Origin: an uncultured Acidimicrobiaceae bacterium
GTDB taxonomy: Bacteria; Actinomycetota; Acidimicrobiia; Acidimicrobiales; Ilumatobacteraceae
NCBI GenBank assembly: GCA_963825605.1
Contig: CAWGTY010000014.1
Span: 117,924 to 181,923, forward strand
Direction of reading: 5' to 3'
DNA length: 64,000 nt
Positions 35,363 through 45,820 of the stretch are shown here, piece after piece. A model generated the notes under the pieces. The model was given only the letters and a program-made list of their open reading frames with translations. It was not told the DNA's origin and did not search any database. Numbering within the stretch: position 1 is the first letter of the stretch; the number at the start of each line of letters is the position of its first letter. The position numbers and the translations under genes were made by a program.

Positions 35363-35447
35363 GTGCCCACCGTACATCCGGGGTCGGCGACCTCGAGCAG
35401 CGCCGCCGATCCGGCTGGTGGCATCCTCGTCGGTTCACCGCGGCCGG

Positions 35448-35790
35448 TCAGCTCGCGGGGTCGTACTGGAACGCGCGCAGTTCCTGCGCGCATCGGCAGG
35501 CGACTGCGTTCTTCGCTGCCCATTCCAGTGCCGGCTCGCGGGAGGGCAGCTCGAGCACGTTGTAGCCACCTTCGATCTCCTTCGTCTGCGGGTACGAGCC
35601 CTCAGTCACGGTCCCGTCGCCGGCGACCAGGACGAGCGGAACGTTCTCGTCGATGCCGCCGCCGAACACCCAAACCCCGGCGTCCTTCGCCTCTTGCACG
35701 ACGGCGTGCGCCGAATCCGCGACCGCCTTGCAGATCCTCGTCGGGAACGACCATTGCACCACCGGGGAAGGAGATCAGGTATTTCGTCAT
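35448..35790 (-). pseudogene. YciI/DGPF-like protein, frameshifted
   Basis: MTKYLISF…EDLQ then AVADSAHAVVQEAKDAGVWVFGGG…EGSYPQTKEIEGGY; extra A near 35727. Confidence 0.75.
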
Positions 35791-35932
35791 CGCAACGGCT
35801 CCTCTTTCGCGCCATCGGGATCTGCCTCATCGTGGCCGATGAGCGCGCCCTACGCAGTAGACGGACCGCCCCCACGGTCGACGGTCGATCGCTCGCCTCG
35901 TGTTCGTCGGCGACCGTCGGGAGATAGGCCGG

Positions 35933-36097
35933 TCAATGATTCGAGACCGGTGGTGTGGCTGCCGTCATGCCCGGCGGCACCTGAGTGGTGACGACCCAGC
36001 GGTGCTTGCCGATCTTGCGGTCCCGGCGGAACCCGGCACGTTCGAAGGTCGAGAGCACGCCGTGGAAGAGGAAACCGGCCGGCGCAGCGTCGGCGGC
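35933..36097 (-). pseudogene. C-terminal relic of a GNAT acetyltransferase
   Basis: Start-less frame GFLFHGVLSTFERAGFRRDRKIGKHRWVVT preceded by an in-frame TGA; resembles the C-terminus of actinobacterial GNATs. Confidence 0.45.
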
Positions 36098-36103
36098 TCA
36101 CGA

Positions 36104-36700
36104 TCAGGTCGACGGGGCGGAGCTCTGGAGCGGTGGTCGCGAGAGCCGGTCGTCGCTCGGGAGGACCCGGGCGTCGATCCCGGCTGCACGGGCTGCGGCG
36201 ACGTTGACGGGCGAGTCGTCGATGAAGCACACCGCGTCGTGTTGCATTGCATCGGTCAGCGGCGCGAACGCGGCCGGGTCGGGCTTGGCGACGCCGAGTC
36301 GATCGGACACGAGCACGCGTTCGAACCGGTCCGCAATGCCGAATCGTTCTAGCCGTGGGAGCAGCCAGCACGAGCGGTGGTTGCTGAGCATCCAGAATCG
36401 CCGGTCGCCAGTGGCGACGAAGTCGAACAGGGGACCCGGCTCGAAGCCGAGCTCGAGGTCGGCCGACAGCTGGGCGGGGGGATCGCCCGGGAAGAGCGCC
36501 GCCCACATCTCGGCCTCCGAGGTGCGTCCCTCCCAGAAGTCGAGCCGCAGTGTCGTGCGCCACTGCTTCCAGACCGTGACCGGGTCGTCGCCTCGCTCGA
36601 GCGCCCGCCTGCGCACGAAGGCCGGGAACGCCCGGTTGAAGACGACACCATGGGCGTCGAGCACGACGATGTCGGCGTCACGTGGCGCCGGCGGGGTCAC
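36104..36700 (-). CDS. HAD-IA family hydrolase
   Basis: Motif I LDAHGV, motif II LSNH, KPDP, motif IV FIDD; GTGA overlap with the upstream kinase. Confidence 0.82.
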   Translation of the reverse strand: MTPPAPRDADIVVLDAHGVVFNRAFPAFVRRRALERGDDPVTVWKQWRTTLRLDFWEGRTSEAEMWAALFPGDPPAQLSADLELGFEPGPLFDFVATGDRRFWMLSNHRSCWLLPRLERFGIADRFERVLVSDRLGVAKPDPAAFAPLTDAMQHDAVCFIDDSPVNVAAARAAGIDARVLPSDDRLSRPPLQSSAPST

Positions 36701-37605
36701 GCTGCGACCTGCTCGAGTCGGGTGACGATCTCGCCGACGAGATCCTGGGTCATCGCCGTGGCTTCGGCGATGTCGATTGTCGGTACCCCACCGGCGTGCG
36801 CCTGTTGCTGGAGGTGCTGTTGGATCATCTCGATCCGGTCGAAGCCGGCCACGTGTCGCTCACCTCGACGCAGTGGTTCGTCGGCTTGGCGTCGCTCGAG
36901 ATTCCGACGGTGAGAGGAGGTCGGTGCCGTGACCAGCCGCTCGACGACGACCGGCCGTGAGGGATGGTCGGTCAGTGCTGCCGCCAGCGAGCCGGGTGTG
37001 AGGTGGACCCCCTCGGCGATCATCGAACGGTGCTCGGCGGCGAGCCGGCTGGCGACTGCTGCCATCGCGTTGGAGACGGCGTTGCACTGCCGGTCGAAAT
37101 CGGCGAACGGGTCGGGTTGGTCTGGTTCGATCAACTCGAAGGTGGAGGTGTGCAGTTCCGGCAGGACAGCGTGGGGGACGACGGTGCGCAGGACCTCTCG
37201 GATGGCGTCGGTGGTGACGAGACGCGTGATCTCGAGGCGGACCGCCAGCCGGGTCGCGAGGGTGCTCTTGCCGACGCCCGGCGCACCGGTCAGGACGATC
37301 ACCACGGGTCGGCCGCTGCGCCTTGCCGCCCGCCACGCCAACCAGCGGTCGGTGATCGGCCCGCCGCCCGGGTGGGCGCGCATGATCTCGCACGCCGTAC
37401 GAACCAAGTCATCGGCATCGTGACGTGCGGCGCCGTCGTTCTCGATCGTTTCTTGTACGAGGAGCGCCAGTCGGTACGCCTCTTCGGTCGGGATGCCCGT
37501 CGCCAACAGGCTGGACGCCATGATCCCGCGCGAGAACGGGAGCACCTCGCCCTGCCGATTGGTGATCATCAGGTTGGGGTTGTCGAAGGCGAGATCGGTG
37601 GGCAT
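36697..37605 (-). CDS. ATP-cone + P-loop kinase, 2-phosphoglycerate-kinase-like
   Basis: LPFSRGIMASSL (ATP-cone-like), GAPGVGKST, VTTDAIREVLR, ELHTSTF, IAEGVHLTP; start ATG 37605 directly after the upstream TGA. Confidence 0.75.
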   Translation of the reverse strand: MPTDLAFDNPNLMITNRQGEVLPFSRGIMASSLLATGIPTEEAYRLALLVQETIENDGAARHDADDLVRTACEIMRAHPGGGPITDRWLAWRAARRSGRPVVIVLTGAPGVGKSTLATRLAVRLEITRLVTTDAIREVLRTVVPHAVLPELHTSTFELIEPDQPDPFADFDRQCNAVSNAMAAVASRLAAEHRSMIAEGVHLTPGSLAAALTDHPSRPVVVERLVTAPTSSHRRNLERRQADEPLRRGERHVAGFDRIEMIQQHLQQQAHAGGVPTIDIAEATAMTQDLVGEIVTRLEQVAA

Positions 37606-37606
37606 G

Positions 37607-39019
37607 TCAGCTCCTGGTGAGTTGGACCGGCGTGTCCCGCAGAGTCCAGTCCGGGTACTTGTGGGGTGGTCCCTCGGCGAGCTCGGCGACCCCGTCACGG
37701 ATGTCGACGATCTTGGGAAGCGGGACATCGGGATCGCCCGGGATACCGGCGAGGCGTTCGGCGAGGTCGTCCGGGAATTCGTCGAGCAGACTGGCGACGA
37801 GGCGCTGTTCCTGGGTCGGGAGGTAACAGCGGGCGGCGTCGGTGACGCCGGCCAGCGCGCGCCGGAGGTGGGCGACCACGTCGATCTTGGTCGGCTTGCC
37901 CAGCACGAGTCCTTCGAGCAGCGCGGTGACGTCGTGGGTGCCGAGTTTGCAGGAGTTGCACTGGCCGCACGACTCGACGTGCAAGAAGCGCGACACCTGG
38001 TAGGCGACGTCGACCATGTTGCGAGAGTCGTCGTACACGATGAACCCTGCCGAACCCAGCCCGCCACCCGCACCGGCCAGCCCCTCGTACGAGACGGGGG
38101 CGCCGAGCGCTGCGGCCGGCAGGACGGGGTTGGCGACACCCGACAGCACGGCCTTGATCGACCGACCGGGACGAGGGCCGTCAGTGAGCTCGCGAATCAG
38201 CTGATCGAGGGGTGTCCCGAGCGACACCTCGGCGACGGCGGCGTGGCGCACGTCGCCGGTCATCGTGACGATCGTCGGCCCGGGCGACACGCTGGTGCCC
38301 AGTGACCGATACCACGCCGCGCCGTGGCGGCACACGAGCGCGACATGGGCCAGCGTCTCGGCGTTGTTGACGACGGCCGGATTGGAGCTCGGTATGGCTG
38401 GACCACCAGGCGAGTCGTCGACTCCTGCTGACCAGCCGAGCTGGGGACCGGTGGTGTACAACCCGTAGAGATACGGCGGGATCTGGCGGGGAAGCGGATC
38501 GTCACCCTCGATCACCTCGAGCAGCGCCGTCTCTTCACCGAACAGGTAGTGGTCGGGACCCTCCACGACCGAGACGTCGAGTCCCTCGAGCCAGCCAGTG
38601 GAGTCGAGTTCCGAGATGGCACCTCGGATCCGATCGAGCTGCTCGGTGTACGTCGCCTTCGTGGCCACGACGACCCGCCGCGCCCTGACGGCATGGGCGG
38701 CGATCAGGGCGCCCTCGATGACGGCGTACGGGTTGACCCGCAGCAGCGCCCGATCCTTGAACGTGCCCGGCTCACCCTCGGCCGCGTTGACGACGACGAA
38801 GCACTCGTCGTCGTCGCCAATCGAAGCCAGGACGCCGGCCCACTTGCGCGCCGCGGGGAACCCGGCCCCTCCTCGCCCGCGCACGCCGGCCTCGCCGATC
38901 AGTGTGATCACGTCATCGCCCGTCATCGTCCGGGCGTGTCGAAGCCCGTCGAGGCCGCCCGACTCGACGTAGTCGGAAAGCGCCAGGAGTGGCTCAGTCA
39001 AGAGAACCTCAGAACTCAC
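37607..39019 (-). CDS. stand-alone NuoF-like FMN/4Fe-4S oxidoreductase subunit
   Basis: GVRGRGGAGFP, NAAEGEPGTFKDR, YLFGEETALL, NNAETL, SLBB region, ESCGQCNSC…RCYL cluster motif. Confidence 0.88.
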   Translation of the reverse strand: MSSEVLLTEPLLALSDYVESGGLDGLRHARTMTGDDVITLIGEAGVRGRGGAGFPAARKWAGVLASIGDDDECFVVVNAAEGEPGTFKDRALLRVNPYAVIEGALIAAHAVRARRVVVATKATYTEQLDRIRGAISELDSTGWLEGLDVSVVEGPDHYLFGEETALLEVIEGDDPLPRQIPPYLYGLYTTGPQLGWSAGVDDSPGGPAIPSSNPAVVNNAETLAHVALVCRHGAAWYRSLGTSVSPGPTIVTMTGDVRHAAVAEVSLGTPLDQLIRELTDGPRPGRSIKAVLSGVANPVLPAAALGAPVSYEGLAGAGGGLGSAGFIVYDDSRNMVDVAYQVSRFLHVESCGQCNSCKLGTHDVTALLEGLVLGKPTKIDVVAHLRRALAGVTDAARCYLPTQEQRLVASLLDEFPDDLAERLAGIPGDPDVPLPKIVDIRDGVAELAEGPPHKYPDWTLRDTPVQLTRS

Positions 39020-39024
39020 ACCTC

Positions 39025-39043
39025 AATCATAATAGGCATGATT
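39025..39043. promoter_or_regulatory. AT-rich inverted repeat upstream of the NuoF-like operon
   Basis: AATCAT-N7-ATGATT within an AT-rich patch (39020-39070), 5 nt upstream of the start codon; regulator unknown. Confidence 0.5.
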
Positions 39044-39195
39044 CAAAACCGCTATCACAGATATGAGATCAGGTGGACGCTGACCTGTGTCCGGTCCGTA
39101 CATGCCGGTCGTCTCCGAGGAGACGCGAGCATCGCGCGCCTCGACGGTCACGAGCGGCGCTGACCCGCAGCACGGTCCGCGACGGTCGGATCGGT

Positions 39196-40014
39196 TCAGG
39201 CCTCGTCGACGAGCGCCACGCCCACACGGCCGAACCGTACGACCGCATGTTCGGCGAGGGCGAAGATGAAGATGATGATGCCGGCCATCTCGAGACTCTC
39301 CTCGATGGTCTGGTAGGCCACAGACGACACGTTGCCGCTGCCCTCCGACTCGACGACGGTGCCGCCCAGCATCTCGATCCCGATCGCGCCGCACACGTAG
39401 ACGCCACCCGCGACGAGGAACAGCCTCGCAATCCTCGGCGGGAGTCGCCGCAGGAACGGCACGTAGATCGCGAGGAACAACAAACCGGCGGCGCCGTACG
39501 GGATGACCCAGGCATAGAACAGGATCCCCGAGGTGTTCAGCGCGTTCCGGGTGGGCTCGATCAGCTTCTCGTGATAGGACAGCATCTCGTCGATCGAGAG
39601 GAACACGAAGACGGCGGCGAGTCCGATCCAGTGGCGGAGGTCGGGATCGCTGCGTCGGGCCGTGCCGGTCGCGATCAGCGAGGCGAGCACGGCGCAGAAG
39701 AGGATGGCGAGCGCCGAGTAGTACGCCGGGATTCCGGTGTCCGAGCCGAGGCTGAACGCGTTCAGGAGCCCGAACAGGCCATCGTTGCCGGTGGCGAAGC
39801 GGATGGTCTGCATCACCAGGTGGATGACGACGAAGCCCGATGCCACCGCGGCGAACGCGCGGGCGAGCAGGACCGGTCCCGCCGAGACAAAGACGTCGAC
39901 GAACACGATGCGCTCGGGCCCGTCCCGGTCACCGGTGTGAGGTTGATCGAACTCGGTTGCCACCGCCAGACCGCCCTGAACGTATGGATAAGCGACCGGC
40001 GACGAGTCGGGCAC
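39196..40014 (-). CDS. uncharacterised multi-pass membrane protein
   Basis: About 6 TM segments with W…FVFLSIDEMLSYHE, AWVIPY, GAIGIEM and EESLEM conserved-looking motifs; start uncertain. Confidence 0.65.
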   Translation of the reverse strand: MPDSSPVAYPYVQGGLAVATEFDQPHTGDRDGPERIVFVDVFVSAGPVLLARAFAAVASGFVVIHLVMQTIRFATGNDGLFGLLNAFSLGSDTGIPAYYSALAILFCAVLASLIATGTARRSDPDLRHWIGLAAVFVFLSIDEMLSYHEKLIEPTRNALNTSGILFYAWVIPYGAAGLLFLAIYVPFLRRLPPRIARLFLVAGGVYVCGAIGIEMLGGTVVESEGSGNVSSVAYQTIEESLEMAGIIIFIFALAEHAVVRFGRVGVALVDEA

Positions 40015-40194
40015 CGCCTCCGCCCCGCACTATCCCGAATCAGCCCGTCAGGAACATTCTCCTGAACTTGGTCCACGCCATGCAAGAGCCAGGGGACGCC
40101 GCCGGCTCGGCGTCGAGCGGCTGCCCTCGGACGATCGAGAGCCCGGGCGGTGGGCCCGGGCTCTGGATGTTCGCTGAGGATGGCTGGTCTCAAC

Positions 40195-41088
40195 TCAGTT
40201 GGAGTCTCGCCGGTACAGCAGGAGTGTGCCGATGGTGAGGCTGATGAGTGCGTAGCCACCGAAGATGAGGGCGTACCGGGGGCGATCGAGTTGGTTGAGA
40301 ATGGCCACTGGCGGCTCGAAGTTCGGGCCGGCGTCGAGGAGTCGGTAGCCGGCGCTGAAAGGCAGGAAGTGGCGCACGGTCTCGGGTAGCGCCGGTGCGA
40401 ACAGGCTCTCGATGACGAACGACCACATCAGCAGACCGGTGATCGCTCCGGCGGTGTGGCGGGCGATCATGCCGACGCCGAGACCGATCAGGGCGGACAG
40501 GGCAATGTACAGCAGTGCCCACAACGCCCGGGACGTGAGGGCGTTGCCGTCGCCGAGCGCGACGCCTCCGAGTGCGGCGCCGCCGAAGCCGGCGATCATG
40601 CCGGTGGCACCCAGCGTGAGACCGACGAGTGTCGCGGTGATCGTCTTGGCTGTCACGATCACCCAGCGAGCGGGCTGCGCGGTGAGCGCGACCGCCAAGG
40701 TGCCGTGCTGGGCTTCGCCGGTGAACATGAGGATCCCGACGACGGCGGCCAACATGGCCACCAACGGCAGTGGGTAGATGAACAGCTCGGCGGCCCTCAG
40801 AGTCGGGTCGGTGTTCGTCGCCGCGAGGACGGCGGCGATGAGGGCACCGATAACGCCGGTGAGGACGAGGATCACCTTGTTGGCTCGGAGGGCGGTCAGT
40901 TTGATCCACTCGCTTCGCAGCGCAGCGGGTACTGCTCGCGCATCGTCGGAGCGGGTGCGGACCGCTGAGCGGTCGCCAGCGGTCGGGGTGATGGCCGGGT
41001 CGGCGATGGTCGTGTTGGTGATGGCCGGGTTGGTGATGGTCGGGTCGGCGATGGTCGGGTTGGTGATGGTCGAGTTGGTGATGGTCAT
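40195..41088 (-). CDS. ABC-2 type transporter permease
   Basis: LRSEWIKL, GILMFTGEAQHGT, RWVIVTAK, six TMs; N-terminal pentapeptide repeats. Confidence 0.88.
   Translation of the reverse strand: MTITNSTITNPTIADPTITNPAITNTTIADPAITPTAGDRSAVRTRSDDARAVPAALRSEWIKLTALRANKVILVLTGVIGALIAAVLAATNTDPTLRAAELFIYPLPLVAMLAAVVGILMFTGEAQHGTLAVALTAQPARWVIVTAKTITATLVGLTLGATGMIAGFGGAALGGVALGDGNALTSRALWALLYIALSALIGLGVGMIARHTAGAITGLLMWSFVIESLFAPALPETVRHFLPFSAGYRLLDAGPNFEPPVAILNQLDRPRYALIFGGYALISLTIGTLLLYRRDSN
40990..41088. repeat. 15-bp coding minisatellite, 6 full copies plus 1 partial
   Basis: Units GATGG(T/C)CG(G/T/A)GT(T/C)GG(T/C) at 40990, 41005, 41020, 41035, 41050, 41065 and 41080; encode TITNS-TITNP-TIADP-type repeats. 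Confidence 0.9.
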
Positions 41089-41128
41089 GGTTCTGTCCTT
41101 CTGAGCGATGAGTCGTTGGGATGGAGGA

Positions 41129-42025
41129 TCAGGCGGAGGCGAACTCGGCTGAGGTGCCGGTCATGTCGAGGAGGGTGTCCTCGAGCGACGGGATGGTCTC
41201 GCTGAGCTCGTCGAGGCGGATGCCGTGCTCGAAGGCGAGTCGCGACACGGTGGCCTTGGTGGCACCGCGGATGACGAGCCGGTTGCCGGTGGTCTCGATG
41301 GTGACCTGCGGGCCTGCCAGCACACGCGTGAGGTCGGCCGGTCGGGGTGTTTCGGCGACGACGGTCGCTGCTTGCCGTGAGGCGATGGATTCGACGGTGT
41401 CGGATGCCAGGAGCTTGCCGCCGCCGACGACGACGAGGTCGTCGGCGAACATGCTGAGTTCGCTGATGAGGTGACTGGACACGAACACGGTGCCACCCCG
41501 ACGGGCGAAGTCGGTGAGGTGACGACGCAGCCAACGGATGCCGTCGGGGTCGAGTCCGTTCGACGGCTCGTCGAGCAGCAGGACCTGAGGGTCTCCGATG
41601 AGGGCGCCGGCAAGGGCGAGGCGCTGGCGCATTCCGAGGGAGAATCCGCCGGTGCGCTGGTCGGCGGCCGATTCGAGACCGACGTCGACGAGGACGTCGT
41701 CCACGCGGGACGCGGGAATGGAGCTCATGGCGGCCATGGCTCGGAGGTGGTTGCGGGCGGTGTGGCCGGGGTGCATGCAGCGGGTGTCGAGCACGGAGCC
41801 GACGAGCCTGGCCGGGTGCCGCAGATCGGTGTAGCGGACGCCGTCGTAGCGGACTTCGCCCTCGTCCGGGCGGGTGAGGCCGACCATCATCCGCATCGTG
41901 GTCGACTTGCCGGCTCCGTTCGGTCCGACGAAGCCGGTGACTCGTCCGGCGGCCACGGTGAATGTGAGGTCGGCGACCGCGGTGCGGTCCCCGTAGTGCT
42001 TGGTGAGTCCGGTGACGGTGATCAT
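41129..42025 (-). CDS. ABC transporter ATP-binding protein
   Basis: GPNGAGKSTT, FSLGMRQR, LLLDEPSNGLD, SSH; start ATG 42025. Confidence 0.95.
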   Translation of the reverse strand: MITVTGLTKHYGDRTAVADLTFTVAAGRVTGFVGPNGAGKSTTMRMMVGLTRPDEGEVRYDGVRYTDLRHPARLVGSVLDTRCMHPGHTARNHLRAMAAMSSIPASRVDDVLVDVGLESAADQRTGGFSLGMRQRLALAGALIGDPQVLLLDEPSNGLDPDGIRWLRRHLTDFARRGGTVFVSSHLISELSMFADDLVVVGGGKLLASDTVESIASRQAATVVAETPRPADLTRVLAGPQVTIETTGNRLVIRGATKATVSRLAFEHGIRLDELSETIPSLEDTLLDMTGTSAEFASA

Positions 42026-42360
42026 GAGGTTGCTGCTCCTGGTGAGTGGTGATGGGGTTGGTTCTGAATTTCGTTGGGACGTTCGATGGCCGCTTCCGGA
42101 GAAGCGGGGGTGAGCGAGATCAGCGTGATGCCGAGGTCCCGAAGCTTCTGGAGCAGTCCGTGGAGCGCGGCTTGGTCGACGACGAATCCGCGGATGACGG
42201 AGGTCCCGTCGTTCTCGCAGGTGAGGGTCAGTCCGTCGAACCACGTCGACCACCGTGATCCGAGGTGTCCGCCGACACGGATCTCATAGTGCTGGGTGGC
42301 CGCCTGTTCAGCGATGGAGTGCCGGGTGGCCGGCTCGTTCGTGTGGTCGTCTGTGCTCAC
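42022..42360 (-). CDS. small conserved protein typical of MalT-type regulator cassettes
   Basis: YEIRVGGHLGSRWSTWFDGL…VDQAALHGLLQKLRDLGITLISL; ATGA overlap with the ABC ATPase. Confidence 0.8.
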   Translation of the reverse strand: MSTDDHTNEPATRHSIAEQAATQHYEIRVGGHLGSRWSTWFDGLTLTCENDGTSVIRGFVVDQAALHGLLQKLRDLGITLISLTPASPEAAIERPNEIQNQPHHHSPGAATS

Positions 42361-42449: not shown

Positions 42450-42475
42450 TCAGAGACCCAGTTCAGAGACCCAGT
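42450..42475. repeat. exact 13-bp tandem duplication of the MalT gene 3' end
   Basis: TCAGAGACCCAGT at 42450-42462 and 42463-42475, duplicating the last codons and stop. Confidence 0.85.
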
Positions 42476-45129
42476 TCAGCGGCGCGGGTCACCGCTTCGC
42501 GGCGGTTCGTGGCGCCGAGCTTCGTGTAGATGTGCTTGGTGTGGGTCCGCAGCGTGTTGAGTGAGACGTGGAGCTCGCGGGCGACGTCGGGCCCGGTGAG
42601 GTCGCTGCGCAGGAGGCGGAGGACGTCGAGTTCTCGTTCGCTCAACTGGTCGGGGTCGCCGACGCGGGTGTGACGAGCGTGTGTCGACCGTCCCGTCCCG
42701 AGGATTCGTGCGGCGTGTGGGTCGCTCGCGGCGAGCGGGCGGAGCAAACCTGCCGCGGCCGGCGCGACACCGAGGATCGACCGCACGTAGCCCTCCGGCT
42801 CGGCCCGATCCAGCGCTTCGCGAAGAGAAGCAGTGGCGGAAGCCCTGTCGCCTGACGCCTGCCGGGCGAGCGCCAGGAGCACGAGGATCTCGATGCTGCT
42901 ACCGAGGCGGTGTCCGTCGTCGGCAGCGGCGAGGAGCCGCTCGAGGAGGCCGGTCGCCTGTTCGACGGCTCGAGCTGAACCTCGGGCGAGGAGCAGACCG
43001 GCGAGTGTGACGTGTTCGAACTCGCGGACGTAGGTGAGTTCGTCATCTGCGGAGACACCGTGTTCGTCGGCCCATCGTTCGCCGGCCCCGAGGTCGCCGA
43101 GCTTGACCTCGACCCTGGTCCTCTGGGCGCTGACTGGTCGGACGTTGGGGGAGTAGTCCGTGTTGTAGTGCGCTTGGGCTTCGGTGAGCATCTCGAGCGC
43201 TCGGTCGAGGTTGCCGTGGGCTTCATGGAGCAGTGCGGTCGCAACTCTCCAGCGATAGGCGTGCTGCGGGAGGCCCATGTGTTCACCCAGCTCGGCGCTT
43301 GTCCGAAGGTGCTCGGCAGCGGTCTCGAGATCGTTGCGCTCGACGGCGAGCACTCCGAGACCTGCGTGCATGTCGGCTGCGCCGCGCACGCCGGGGTTTG
43401 CGGCGGTGTGGCGGAGCGCAGAGTCGAACGTGCGGTGCGCGTCGTGCAGGCGACCCTGGGTGATCTGGATGTCGGCGAGCGCCAACGAGCAACCCATGAC
43501 ATCGGCGATGTAGTCGCCGAGTTCGAAGCAGGCGATCGATTCGATGTAGCGGCTGCGTGCGTCGTCAAGTTCGCCTCGGTTCCAGTGCGCCAGGCCGAGT
43601 AGCGCCGCGGCGGCGCCGCGTTGGAGGTGGTCGTCAGCGCCGATCAGATCGCGGACGCGCTGAGCGTGCTCGATCGTCCCGGCGGTGTCGCCGGCAAGGA
43701 GCGCGAGTCCGGCCCGATGCACTGCAGCCATGGCCGGCAGACGGCGGTACGCGACCTGGTCGAACACGATGGGTGGATCGGTGCGGATGAGCCATGAGTC
43801 GATGATCTCGAGCAGCGGGTCGAGGTCGTCGGTGTTGCCGTTCGCCATTCGGGCTCCGACGAGCGCCATGGCGAGAACCGGTCGATCGATGTAGAGGTCG
43901 GCGGGGAGGGTTTCGAGCCAGGTCCGCAGCTGCAACTCCTGGCGGGCCTGCTGCATGGCTCGCGCGTTCAGTTCGATCAGCTTCGCGGCGCGCTCGTGGT
44001 CGCGAGCAGCGAGCGCGTGGACGATGGCTTCGATGGGCTCGCCGTTGTCGGCGTACCAGTCGCTCGCCCGACGGTGCAGCTCTGGAACGCGGTCGGGCCG
44101 CTCGTCCAGGAGCCTCGCCCGCACGACATCCCCGAACAGGTGGTGATACCGATACCAGGTGCGGCGATCGTCGAGGGGAATCACGAACAGGTTCGTTCGC
44201 TCCAGCTCCTCGAGGATTGCCCTGGCGTCGGGCTGGCCGGTCATCGCGGCACACAGCGGGCCCGTGAGCCGGCTCACGAGGGAAGTGTCGAGCAGGAAGT
44301 CCCGGATCGGTGCGGGCTGGCGTTCGAGGACCTCGTCGGTGAGGTAGTCGAGGATGAACCGGTCGTCGCCGGCGAACTCTTCGATGAACGACACCGGGTC
44401 GCTGCGGCCCTGCATCGACAACGCCGCGAGCTGCAAGGCGGCGATCCATCCCTCGGTACGGGCTTCGAGCACGTCGACATCGGGCTGGGTCAGGGTCAGT
44501 TCCATCGCGTCGTTCAGGTACTCGGCGGCCTCGGATGCCGTGAAGCGCAGGTCGGCCGCTCGGACCTCCAGCAGATCGCCGCCTGCCCGTAGCGAAGCGA
44601 GCGGGAGCGGCGGATCGGACCGGGTGGCAATCACCAGACTGAGCTGAGGTGGGAGATGCTCGAGCAGGAACGCGACGGAGTCGTGGATCTCGGGCGCGTC
44701 GATCACGTGATAGTCGTCGAGCACCAGGACGATGTCCTGAGAAGCAGTCTCGAGATCGTTGATCACAGTGGCGACGACGGACTCCAAGGATGCTCCGGGA
44801 CGATGCAGGAGGGCGTCGGCCTCTTCGCTCAGGTCGGAGGTGACGGTCGCGAGCGCAGCAGTCACGTAGGTCCAGAACTGCTCGGGGTCGTTGTCGCGCA
44901 CGTCGAGGGACAGCCATGCGGTGGTGTGATCGTCGGCGTACCAGTCGGCGACCAGCGTGGACTTGCCGAAGCCAGCAGGAGCCGAGACCAGCGTCAGAGC
45001 ACGAGGTCCGCTCCGGGTGGCGAGATCGCTGAGTCGAGGTCGAGCCACAAGGGTGCGGCGTCGACGCGGTGGGTGCAACTTCGAGGTGAGCAGCACGATC
45101 CCCTCAGCCGCTGGATCGGCGGACGTCAT
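42463..45129 (-). CDS. MalT-like STAND ATPase/TPR/LuxR regulator
   Basis: LLTSKLHPP, APAGFGKST, LVLDDYH, TEGWIAALQLA, WYRYHHLF, C-terminal LuxR HTH; start ATG 45129. Confidence 0.93.
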   Translation of the reverse strand: MTSADPAAEGIVLLTSKLHPPRRRRTLVARPRLSDLATRSGPRALTLVSAPAGFGKSTLVADWYADDHTTAWLSLDVRDNDPEQFWTYVTAALATVTSDLSEEADALLHRPGASLESVVATVINDLETASQDIVLVLDDYHVIDAPEIHDSVAFLLEHLPPQLSLVIATRSDPPLPLASLRAGGDLLEVRAADLRFTASEAAEYLNDAMELTLTQPDVDVLEARTEGWIAALQLAALSMQGRSDPVSFIEEFAGDDRFILDYLTDEVLERQPAPIRDFLLDTSLVSRLTGPLCAAMTGQPDARAILEELERTNLFVIPLDDRRTWYRYHHLFGDVVRARLLDERPDRVPELHRRASDWYADNGEPIEAIVHALAARDHERAAKLIELNARAMQQARQELQLRTWLETLPADLYIDRPVLAMALVGARMANGNTDDLDPLLEIIDSWLIRTDPPIVFDQVAYRRLPAMAAVHRAGLALLAGDTAGTIEHAQRVRDLIGADDHLQRGAAAALLGLAHWNRGELDDARSRYIESIACFELGDYIADVMGCSLALADIQITQGRLHDAHRTFDSALRHTAANPGVRGAADMHAGLGVLAVERNDLETAAEHLRTSAELGEHMGLPQHAYRWRVATALLHEAHGNLDRALEMLTEAQAHYNTDYSPNVRPVSAQRTRVEVKLGDLGAGERWADEHGVSADDELTYVREFEHVTLAGLLLARGSARAVEQATGLLERLLAAADDGHRLGSSIEILVLLALARQASGDRASATASLREALDRAEPEGYVRSILGVAPAAAGLLRPLAASDPHAARILGTGRSTHARHTRVGDPDQLSERELDVLRLLRSDLTGPDVARELHVSLNTLRTHTKHIYTKLGATNRREAVTRAAELGL

Positions 45130-45226
45130 TGCTCGGCAGACCTCGGCCGTGAGGCACAGACCGGCGCGGGCCATTCGGTCGAGGGTTGCTGCGATGGACG
45201 CGATCGCACCGCCGGGTTCGTCGTCA

Positions 45227-45820
45227 TCATCGGGCACTCGTGCGACGAGGCGCGGCGCGGACGTGCGCCCGTTCGCCGGGTCGGCTGAGGATGCTGAGGA
45301 TCTCGACGGGTTGATTCCCGGCGGCACCGAACCAATGGGGGACCGCGGTGTCGAACTCGGCCACCTCACCGGACTTCATCGTGATGTCGTGGCCCCCGAG
45401 CAGTAGTCGCAGCTCGCCGCTGAGCACGTACAACCATTCGTACCCGTCGTGCGACTTGAGTCGGGGACGCTTGTGCTCGGGTGGGATCAACACCTTCCAC
45501 GCGTGCATCCCGCTCGGCTGCTCGGTGAGAGGCACGACCGTGCGTGTTCCGCGCCGGTGGGGCCGGGGCCGGATTCGCGGATCGCCGACCTCGGGGGCAC
45601 CGACGAGTTCGTCGAGCGCAACGGAATACGCCTGAGCAATCGGGAGCAACAGTTCGAGGCTCGGCTTGCGTTGCCCCGTCTCGAGACGCGACAACGTGCT
45701 CTTCGAAATTCCCGTCGTCTTCGACAACTCGATCAGCGTCAACCCGCGCTCGGTCCTCAACTTGCGCAGACGGCCGGCGACCCCGGCGAGCACACTCGTC
45801 GCTTCCGGGGCGGCCGTCAT
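45227..45820 (-). CDS. XRE-family HTH + cupin transcriptional regulator
   Basis: LRKLRTERGLTL…ISKSTLSRLETGQRKPSLELL; HDGYEWLYVLSG…FDTAVPHWFG. Confidence 0.92.
   Translation of the reverse strand: MTAAPEATSVLAGVAGRLRKLRTERGLTLIELSKTTGISKSTLSRLETGQRKPSLELLLPIAQAYSVALDELVGAPEVGDPRIRPRPHRRGTRTVVPLTEQPSGMHAWKVLIPPEHKRPRLKSHDGYEWLYVLSGELRLLLGGHDITMKSGEVAEFDTAVPHWFGAAGNQPVEILSILSRPGERAHVRAAPRRTSAR

Follow-up and report, generated by a model that had tools for sequence, protein, structure and literature searches.

A conserved gene pair for a 2-phosphoglycerate kinase-like protein and a HAD hydrolase, with a NuoF-like neighbour in one sub-lineage, at a locus of an uncultured Acidimicrobiaceae bacterium

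Do three tightly packed genes of an uncultured Acidimicrobiaceae bacterium code for a single redox-controlled system, or is only part of the trio a conserved unit, and which chemistry would that unit carry out? The genes lie in a stretch of 64,000 nucleotides with a GC content of ~67%, called here the window (CAWGTY010000014.1, positions 117,924 to 181,923), which is part of contig C14 in genome G000 (5.24 Mb; 98.9% complete). All three were called on the reverse strand as open reading frames (ORFs) and translated. A NuoF-like flavo-iron-sulfur protein gene (39019..37607; GTG start, 470 aa) is followed by a gene for a P-loop kinase assigned to the 2-phosphoglycerate kinase (2PGK) family (37605..36697; ATG start, 302 aa) and by a gene for a hydrolase of haloacid dehalogenase class IA (HAD-IA; 36700..36104; GTG start, 198 aa). 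The original prediction had described this close packing, and the ORFs and junction sequences bear it out: the NuoF-like and kinase genes are separated by a single nucleotide (TGAcATG), with AGGAG located 7 nt 5' of the kinase start, while the kinase and HAD genes overlap by the 4 nt GTGA. The GTG start of the NuoF-like gene lines up with ATG in two relatives. Comparison across genomes gives a simpler unit than the three-protein redox system first envisaged. The conserved unit is the two-gene cassette of kinase and HAD; the NuoF-like gene is a lineage-specific, dispensable add-on.

Thirteen loci that code for a kinase more than 50% identical to that of the window carry this conclusion. They are the window itself, L019 (genome G013), L020 (G002), L021 (G016), L022 (G015), L023 (G014), L039, L040, L041 (an Anaerolineae metagenome-assembled genome, MAG), L042, L049, L050 and L051; several come from MAGs, in which indels are possible. 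An ortholog of the HAD gene is found immediately downstream of the kinase gene at all 13 loci, usually with a 4-nt overlap, and its product shares 43-89% identity with the HAD of the window, declining in step with kinase identity. In G015 (L022:8523-10058) the kinase and HAD form one ORF of 511 aa: immediately ahead of the usual ATGA overlap the sequence differs by 1 nt from that of L042 and L023, owing to a natural fusion or to an indel in the assembly. In G014 (L023:8568-9469) tblastn returns the kinase ortholog as two overlapping segments, each in its own reading frame, next to an intact HAD gene; the gene is either a pseudogene or was misread in sequencing. A NuoF-like gene adjoins the pair at five of the 13 loci, in operon order in the window, L019, L049 and L051 and divergently in L021, and is not adjacent at the other eight. 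Few reference genomes carry a kinase of the HAD-coupled clade: it occurs in 6 of 25 genomes of the genus and in 2 of 401 from a phylum-wide sample.

Profile matches place the kinase in the 2PGK family, as the original prediction had it, and not in an unrelated P-loop kinase family. Its best matches are the NCBIfam 2PGK models NF008994 (E 3e-56) and NF003259 (E 3e-53) over residues 16-300, although the bit scores are under the equivalog cut-offs (191 vs 603 and 181 vs 343, respectively). The model for mevalonate-3-phosphate 5-kinase, NF008996, aligns to the kinase domain only (residues 102-278, E 6e-6). The protein has an N-domain of ~85 aa (~residues 13-97), probably a diverged ATP-cone-like domain, visible both in the 2PGK HMM alignment and in the AlphaFold2 (AF2) model, followed by the kinase domain with the P-loop GAPGVGKST at positions 107-115. 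Pfam assigns it to generic P-loop families only; the ATP-cone family PF03477 gives no match at E<=0.1 and appears faintly in homologs, which softens the ATP-cone part of the original prediction; the family assignment stands. Foldseek comparison of the AF2 model (pLDDT 89) to the PDB returned generic nucleoside monophosphate, shikimate and gluconate kinase folds, and no solved sequence relative was found there, sequence and fold searches alike giving generic P-loop kinases. Metagenomes hold 326 kinase homologs at E<=0.001, several of them named 2-phosphoglycerate kinase by JGI.

The most informative comparison, overlooked in the original prediction, is with a sister clade of kinases. These proteins of the same class share 30-38% identity with the window kinase, and neither a HAD nor a NuoF-like gene is found beside them. 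Their neighbourhood comprises genes for homoserine dehydrogenase, threonine synthase, an ApgM-type PhosphMutase protein, a 475-aa protein, the kinase and rho, with a calcineurin-like phosphoesterase also present at some loci. The 475-aa protein matches the cyclic 2,3-diphosphoglycerate synthetase of Methanothermus fervidus (cDPGS; PDB 8ORK) with E 1e-103. Used as a query, it detects cDPGS in six of six sister-clade genomes and none in the HAD-coupled genomes G000, G002, G013, G014 and G015; HAD-coupled G016 gives a weak 27-bit match (E 1.6e-6), taken as unrelated. The remark that no cDPGS lies near the trio can thus be extended to the whole 98.9%-complete genome, and a cyclic 2,3-diphosphoglycerate (cDPG) pathway is ruled out for the HAD-coupled pair. 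The two kinase clades split at 100/100 support, and the HAD sits where the sister clade carries cDPGS as kinase partner. Common to both clades are the P-loop and residues R123, D133, R136, R140, H152, S154, Q173, R187, E191, E198, H201, H232, R239, R246 and R250; R172, R193, H214, E222 and R223 are found in addition in the HAD-coupled clade. These common features fit a similar anionic substrate. Some kinase of the 2PGK family occurs in 225 of the 401 genomes of the phylum-wide sample, all but the two of the HAD-coupled clade matching at E ~1e-46 or weaker.

The cDPGS loci are of interest in their own right. cDPG is usually described as an archaea-only metabolite. A cDPGS homolog lies directly upstream of a 2PGK-type kinase in many Acidimicrobiia and other members of the phylum (L052:2071-8696 of G292, L053-L063 and L004), the two genes being flanked by hom, thrC and the ApgM-type PhosphMutase gene on one side and by rho on the other. 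The ApgM/PhosphMutase-family gene stands between the threonine genes and the cDPGS-2PGK genes (L052:2071-4599 and equivalents). In TIGRFAMs this family is named a proposed homoserine kinase, and its constant proximity to a kinase that makes 2,3-bisphosphoglycerate (2,3-BPG) raises the question of whether 2,3-BPG could be its phosphoryl donor.

The second member of the pair matches PF00702 and TIGR01509 (40.5 bits, above the cut-off of 29.4). Its description as a HAD phosphatase in the original prediction stands as regards the superfamily; what had escaped attention is the absence of the canonical second Asp. Motif I reads LDAHGVV, with Asp15 as nucleophile and His17 in place of the second Asp of the DxD signature. 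Motifs II to IV are present (S106-N-H-R, K139 and D161-D162). In an alignment of 40 close homologs D15, N107, H108, K139, D161 and D162 are invariant, His17 is found in 39, S106 is kept in more than 90% with Thr in one, and R52, R119 and R128 are nearly invariant. In a library of 1.84 billion proteins the third position of motif I is His in the nearest clusters, Gln, Cys or Asp in the next ones and Gly in the wider family. The AF2 model (pLDDT 92.9) has a Rossmann-like core and a helical cap inserted after motif I, and Foldseek relates it to 3cnh, YihX and the soluble epoxide hydrolase N-domain (E down to 8e-12). The nearest solved structures, 3cnh of D. radiodurans (motif DIG) and YihX of E. 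coli (motif DLG), both have no second Asp. The motif conservation and the confident model suggest that the phosphoryl-transfer machinery is intact, with a clade-specific His at the acid/base Asp position. The pocket is strongly basic, its conserved basic residues being R52, H108, R119 and R128, together with R109 as given by the consensus only. Longer HAD matches in the same library were distant DxG-type HADs with HD-domain or GNAT modules, and none was fused to a kinase. Such relatives (LDxGGV...LSNHR), fused to HD-domain-like or GNAT N-terminal modules, are P0401, P0410, P0480 and P0464.

What could such a pair do? The kinase would add a second phosphate to 2-phosphoglycerate (2-PG) or a close phospho-hydroxy-acid in an ATP-dependent manner, giving a product like 2,3-BPG, and the Mg-dependent HAD would then take off one phosphate. 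A polyanionic substrate would be in keeping with the conserved basic residues of the HAD. Together the two enzymes would run a self-contained, nucleotide-gated make-and-break cycle or carry out a one-way phospho-isomerisation. The family relationships lead us to favour, tentatively, this glycerate-type chemistry, in which the pair makes and then dephosphorylates a bisphospho-acid like 2,3-BPG, and we consider it nearly as probable as its contrary. Several points weigh against it. The kinase substrate is predicted by homology only, the kinase falls well short of both curated cut-offs for 2PGK, and members of the 2PGK family with other substrates are known. Phosphorylating and dephosphorylating the same compound looks futile. 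2,3-BPG would most obviously serve as cofactor of the dependent phosphoglycerate mutase (PGM), but this use is ruled out: the model TIGR01258 for this enzyme finds nothing in G000 or in any pair-carrying genome of the genus, and the cofactor-independent mutase TIGR01307, present in all pair-carrying genomes, is the only one. His17 may not be mechanistically essential, as suggested by the Gln, Cys and Asp residues that take its place in the next-nearest HAD clusters and by the Gly of the wider family. Finally, the single-ORF fusion was seen in G015 alone, an incomplete MAG, and an indel error may account for it.

A more specific form of glycerate-type chemistry can be proposed, and we consider it quite improbable. 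The cassette would be an ATP-driven, Mg-dependent, one-way bypass of PGM, converting 2-PG through 2,3-BPG to 3-phosphoglycerate, or with the reverse regiochemistry, gated by adenine nucleotides at the ATP-cone and, in this lineage, tied to the NADH pool through the NuoF-like protein. If true, it would serve bacteria whose only mutase is the Mn-dependent, cofactor-independent enzyme and would give bacteria an analogue of the red-cell Rapoport-Luebering shunt, made up of proteins with unrelated folds.

The strongest competitor of glycerate-type chemistry, still on the unlikely side, is that the cassette acts on another phospho-metabolite, such as an inositol phosphate, a phosphorylated isoprenoid precursor or a sugar, nucleotide or cofactor phosphate, with the HAD acting on a downstream product and not on that of the kinase itself. 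Scores under the equivalog cut-offs and the presence of the mevalonate-3-phosphate 5-kinase model in the same family leave room for such a substrate, but the 2PGK models lead all kinase matches by 30 orders of magnitude. LPA1 of plants, a 2PGK homolog linked to phytate synthesis for which an inositol phosphate substrate has been proposed, offers a precedent, as does the presence of a glucose-1-phosphate phosphatase, YihX, among the nearest HAD structures; no inositol, isoprenoid or sugar genes, however, recur near the pair in the loci examined. The five residues particular to the HAD-coupled clade set it apart from the cDPGS-coupled kinases, yet most of the charged active-site candidates are common to both clades.

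The NuoF-like protein has the domains expected from the original prediction, Complex1_51K (PF01512, 126 bits) and NADH_4Fe-4S (PF10589, 52 bits), and reaches 269 bits on TIGR01959, under the cut-off of 559. Alignment shows the FMN site GRGGAGFPAARKW, the NAD(H) site AEGEPGTFKDR and the N3-type cluster cysteines CGQCNSC...C to be intact, so that the protein combines the FMN/NADH-binding domain and the four N3-cluster cysteines typical of NuoF. Its family differs from the canonical paralog by a specific insert of ~23 aa and a conserved C-terminal extension of ~50 aa. PDB matches are to multisubunit relatives only, NfnB, NuoF and HydB being the best (E down to 4e-62), with HoxF and FdsB also among them. 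The original prediction saw no partner for it, and within ~6 kb of the trio there is indeed no gene for NuoE, NuoG, a hydrogenase or a formate dehydrogenase. The proposed check for a NuoE partner elsewhere also came out negative: in the 98.9%-complete genome G000 there are two NuoE domains, one in the nuo operon on contig C7 and the other in a fused 623-aa protein on C1, both tied to other NuoF copies, and no spare NuoE was found. The C1 protein (C1:154015-155082; L002, L044) joins a NuoE-like 2Fe-2S domain to a canonical NuoF module and is the third Complex1_51K copy of G000, besides that of the C7 nuo operon.

Does this flavoprotein control the cassette? All three proteins could form a single redox-controlled system in this lineage, in which the NuoF-like protein senses NADH or transfers its electrons to control a 2,3-BPG shunt. 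The search for the three-gene synteny showed that the order is not unique to the window: the trio recurs, tightly coupled, in L019, L049 and L051, with a 1-nt gap between the NuoF-like and kinase genes wherever called and with flanks that differ at every locus, so that the arrangement is not due to chance. The four operon-order loci form one subclade of the kinase tree with moderate support (83/90); L020 and L050, which have the pair only, are sister to it, and L021, in which the NuoF-like gene is divergent yet adjacent, comes next. Identities of the NuoF-like proteins (94/80/77/64%) parallel those of the kinases (92/79/73/60%), indicating that the adjacency is old within the sub-lineage, and no NuoE is available to this NuoF copy. 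Against these observations stand the eight kinase-HAD loci without the gene and the complete genome G002 of the same genus, which has the pair and in which no NuoF-like ortholog was detected at E<=1e-100. In G015 a 75%-identical ortholog is encoded on a contig other than that of the pair, and orthologs at 88, 66, 60 and 53% identity stand alone, beside a class II ribonucleotide reductase gene, a Na/H exchanger gene or nothing recognisable. We know of no chemistry by which a kinase or a phosphatase would be linked to a NuoF module. The redox protein was therefore not retained as part of a conserved system: its absence from the eight loci and G002, together with its solitary occurrence elsewhere, limits a redox-controlled shunt to one sub-lineage at most. 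A redox link is possible in this lineage only, and we regard a single redox-controlled system as improbable. The NuoF-like module would have been placed before the cassette in one sub-lineage of the genus and would then have co-diverged with it. There it is predicted to be co-transcribed with the pair and is probably translationally coupled to it; any redox input would be lineage-specific and non-essential to the cassette.

The motifs and scattered contexts of the NuoF-like gene suggest a separate, mobile module coding for a putative NADH:acceptor flavo-iron-sulfur protein that acts independently of NuoE. The 88%-identity ortholog (L045:178-8413), the closest outside the operon-order loci, lies 81 nt downstream of the gene for class II (B12-dependent) ribonucleotide reductase, and NrdR is encoded close by. 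NuoF-like proteins of this kind may serve as reductases for cobalamin enzymes.

It is highly improbable that the pair is a toxin-antidote or defence module, in which a small-molecule kinase like Zeta toxin poisons the cell and the phosphatase of the overlapping gene reverses the modification: the patchy distribution within the genus, the variable flanks, the gene overlap and faint Zeta_toxin Pfam matches in several homologs speak for it, but PADLOC gave only P-loop-level noise for the kinase (E ~1e-3) and nothing for the other two proteins, and thus does not support it, the ATP-cone-like domain and full-length 2PGK homology indicate metabolism, no mobile-element genes flank the cassette, and in one lineage it is fused or frameshifted.

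Neighbours of the pair recur loosely, with a Mrp antiporter, a class-III aminotransferase and a MarR-like regulator at three loci each, a P-type ATPase with Usp in one related group, SbtA with PII, and MIP. The ion-transport and stress functions among them may hint at salt or pH stress and are too weak a sign for a pathway assignment. In the window, the trio is preceded on the same strand by genes for an ABC ATPase (374 aa), an ABC-2 permease (297 aa) and a polytopic membrane protein of 272 aa that has no Pfam match (39196-42253, reverse strand), separated from one another and from the NuoF-like gene by 176-180 nt. These genes are not kept beside the trio elsewhere. Directly upstream of the ABC transporter genes is the gene for a 968-aa STAND regulator of MalT/LuxR type (42463-45369, reverse strand) with AAA_16, TPR_MalT and GerE domains. 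In L049, a 93%-identical relative, the region 5' of the trio (L049:1017-5231) codes for a class V FBP aldolase/phosphatase, an ArsR-LMWP fusion resembling arsenate reductase, GAPDH and an MFS transporter, a layout similar to the gapdh-arsJ arrangement of arsenate resistance.

A promoter-like element, GTGATA-18 nt-TATTAT (39029..39058, reverse strand), is the sole sigma-70-like match in 35400-40200, where 0.3 were expected. The AT-rich block that contains it can be aligned between the window, L049 and L051, and in part with L019. The -10 box stops 10 nt short of the GTG codon that starts the NuoF-like gene, which suggests a transcript with no leader or a very short one. Neither an Rfam family nor a terminator-like site was found in the trio region, a sub-threshold snoRNA match being the only return.

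The bacterial 2PGK family thus comprises two clades defined by their partners, cDPGS or HAD, and a product is known for the first only. The name 2-phosphoglycerate kinase is consequently no evidence of cDPG synthesis where cDPGS is absent. The HAD-coupled clade offers a clean two-enzyme system that can be assayed; a new role for metabolites of the 2,3-BPG type in bacteria could come to light, or a new substrate for the family that controls phytate levels in plants. The hydrolase of this clade is a naturally occurring HAD in which His takes the acid/base position, and the cassette provides another setting in which a NuoF-like flavoprotein without NuoE occurs. Full-text literature searches turned up no account of the pair, of the trio or of the HAD-coupled kinase clade, and databases name the parts generically.

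Among known systems, the closest are the 2PGK and cDPGS of M. fervidus and the bacterial cpgS-pgk2 clusters, whose kinases belong to the same family as that of the window and probably have the same two-domain layout; the window kinase matches the 2PGK models over its full length, and many of its putative active-site residues recur in cDPGS-adjacent kinases. The window kinase differs from them in forming a separate clade with a HAD partner, never beside cDPGS. Mevalonate-3-phosphate 5-kinase of Thermoplasma and plant LPA1 belong to the same P-loop kinase family, but the match is much weaker (NF008996) and no common gene context was found. The HAD has the core and cap fold of the HAD-IA group of YihX, 3cnh and BT2542 (TM ~0.7-0.76) and, like them, no second Asp in motif I. 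Where these have Gly its clade has His (39 of 40 sequences); a conserved S-N-H-R after motif II, a cap rich in Trp and Arg and the coupling to a kinase gene set it further apart. The NuoF-like protein shares the intact FMN, NAD(H) and N3 [4Fe-4S] motifs of NuoF, HoxF, HydB, NfnB and FdsB, but it has no NuoE or NuoG partner, scores below the TIGR01959 cut-off, carries its own insert and C-terminal extension, and is encoded by a single gene found in many unrelated contexts. The logic proposed for the cassette, paired synthesis and hydrolysis of a bisphosphate metabolite, would resemble that of the Rapoport-Luebering shunt (BPGM) and of PFK-2/FBPase-2. The phosphatase parts of BPGM and PFK-2/FBPase-2 are histidine phosphatases; the folds are unrelated to those of the cassette, and the likeness would be one of function and not of ancestry.

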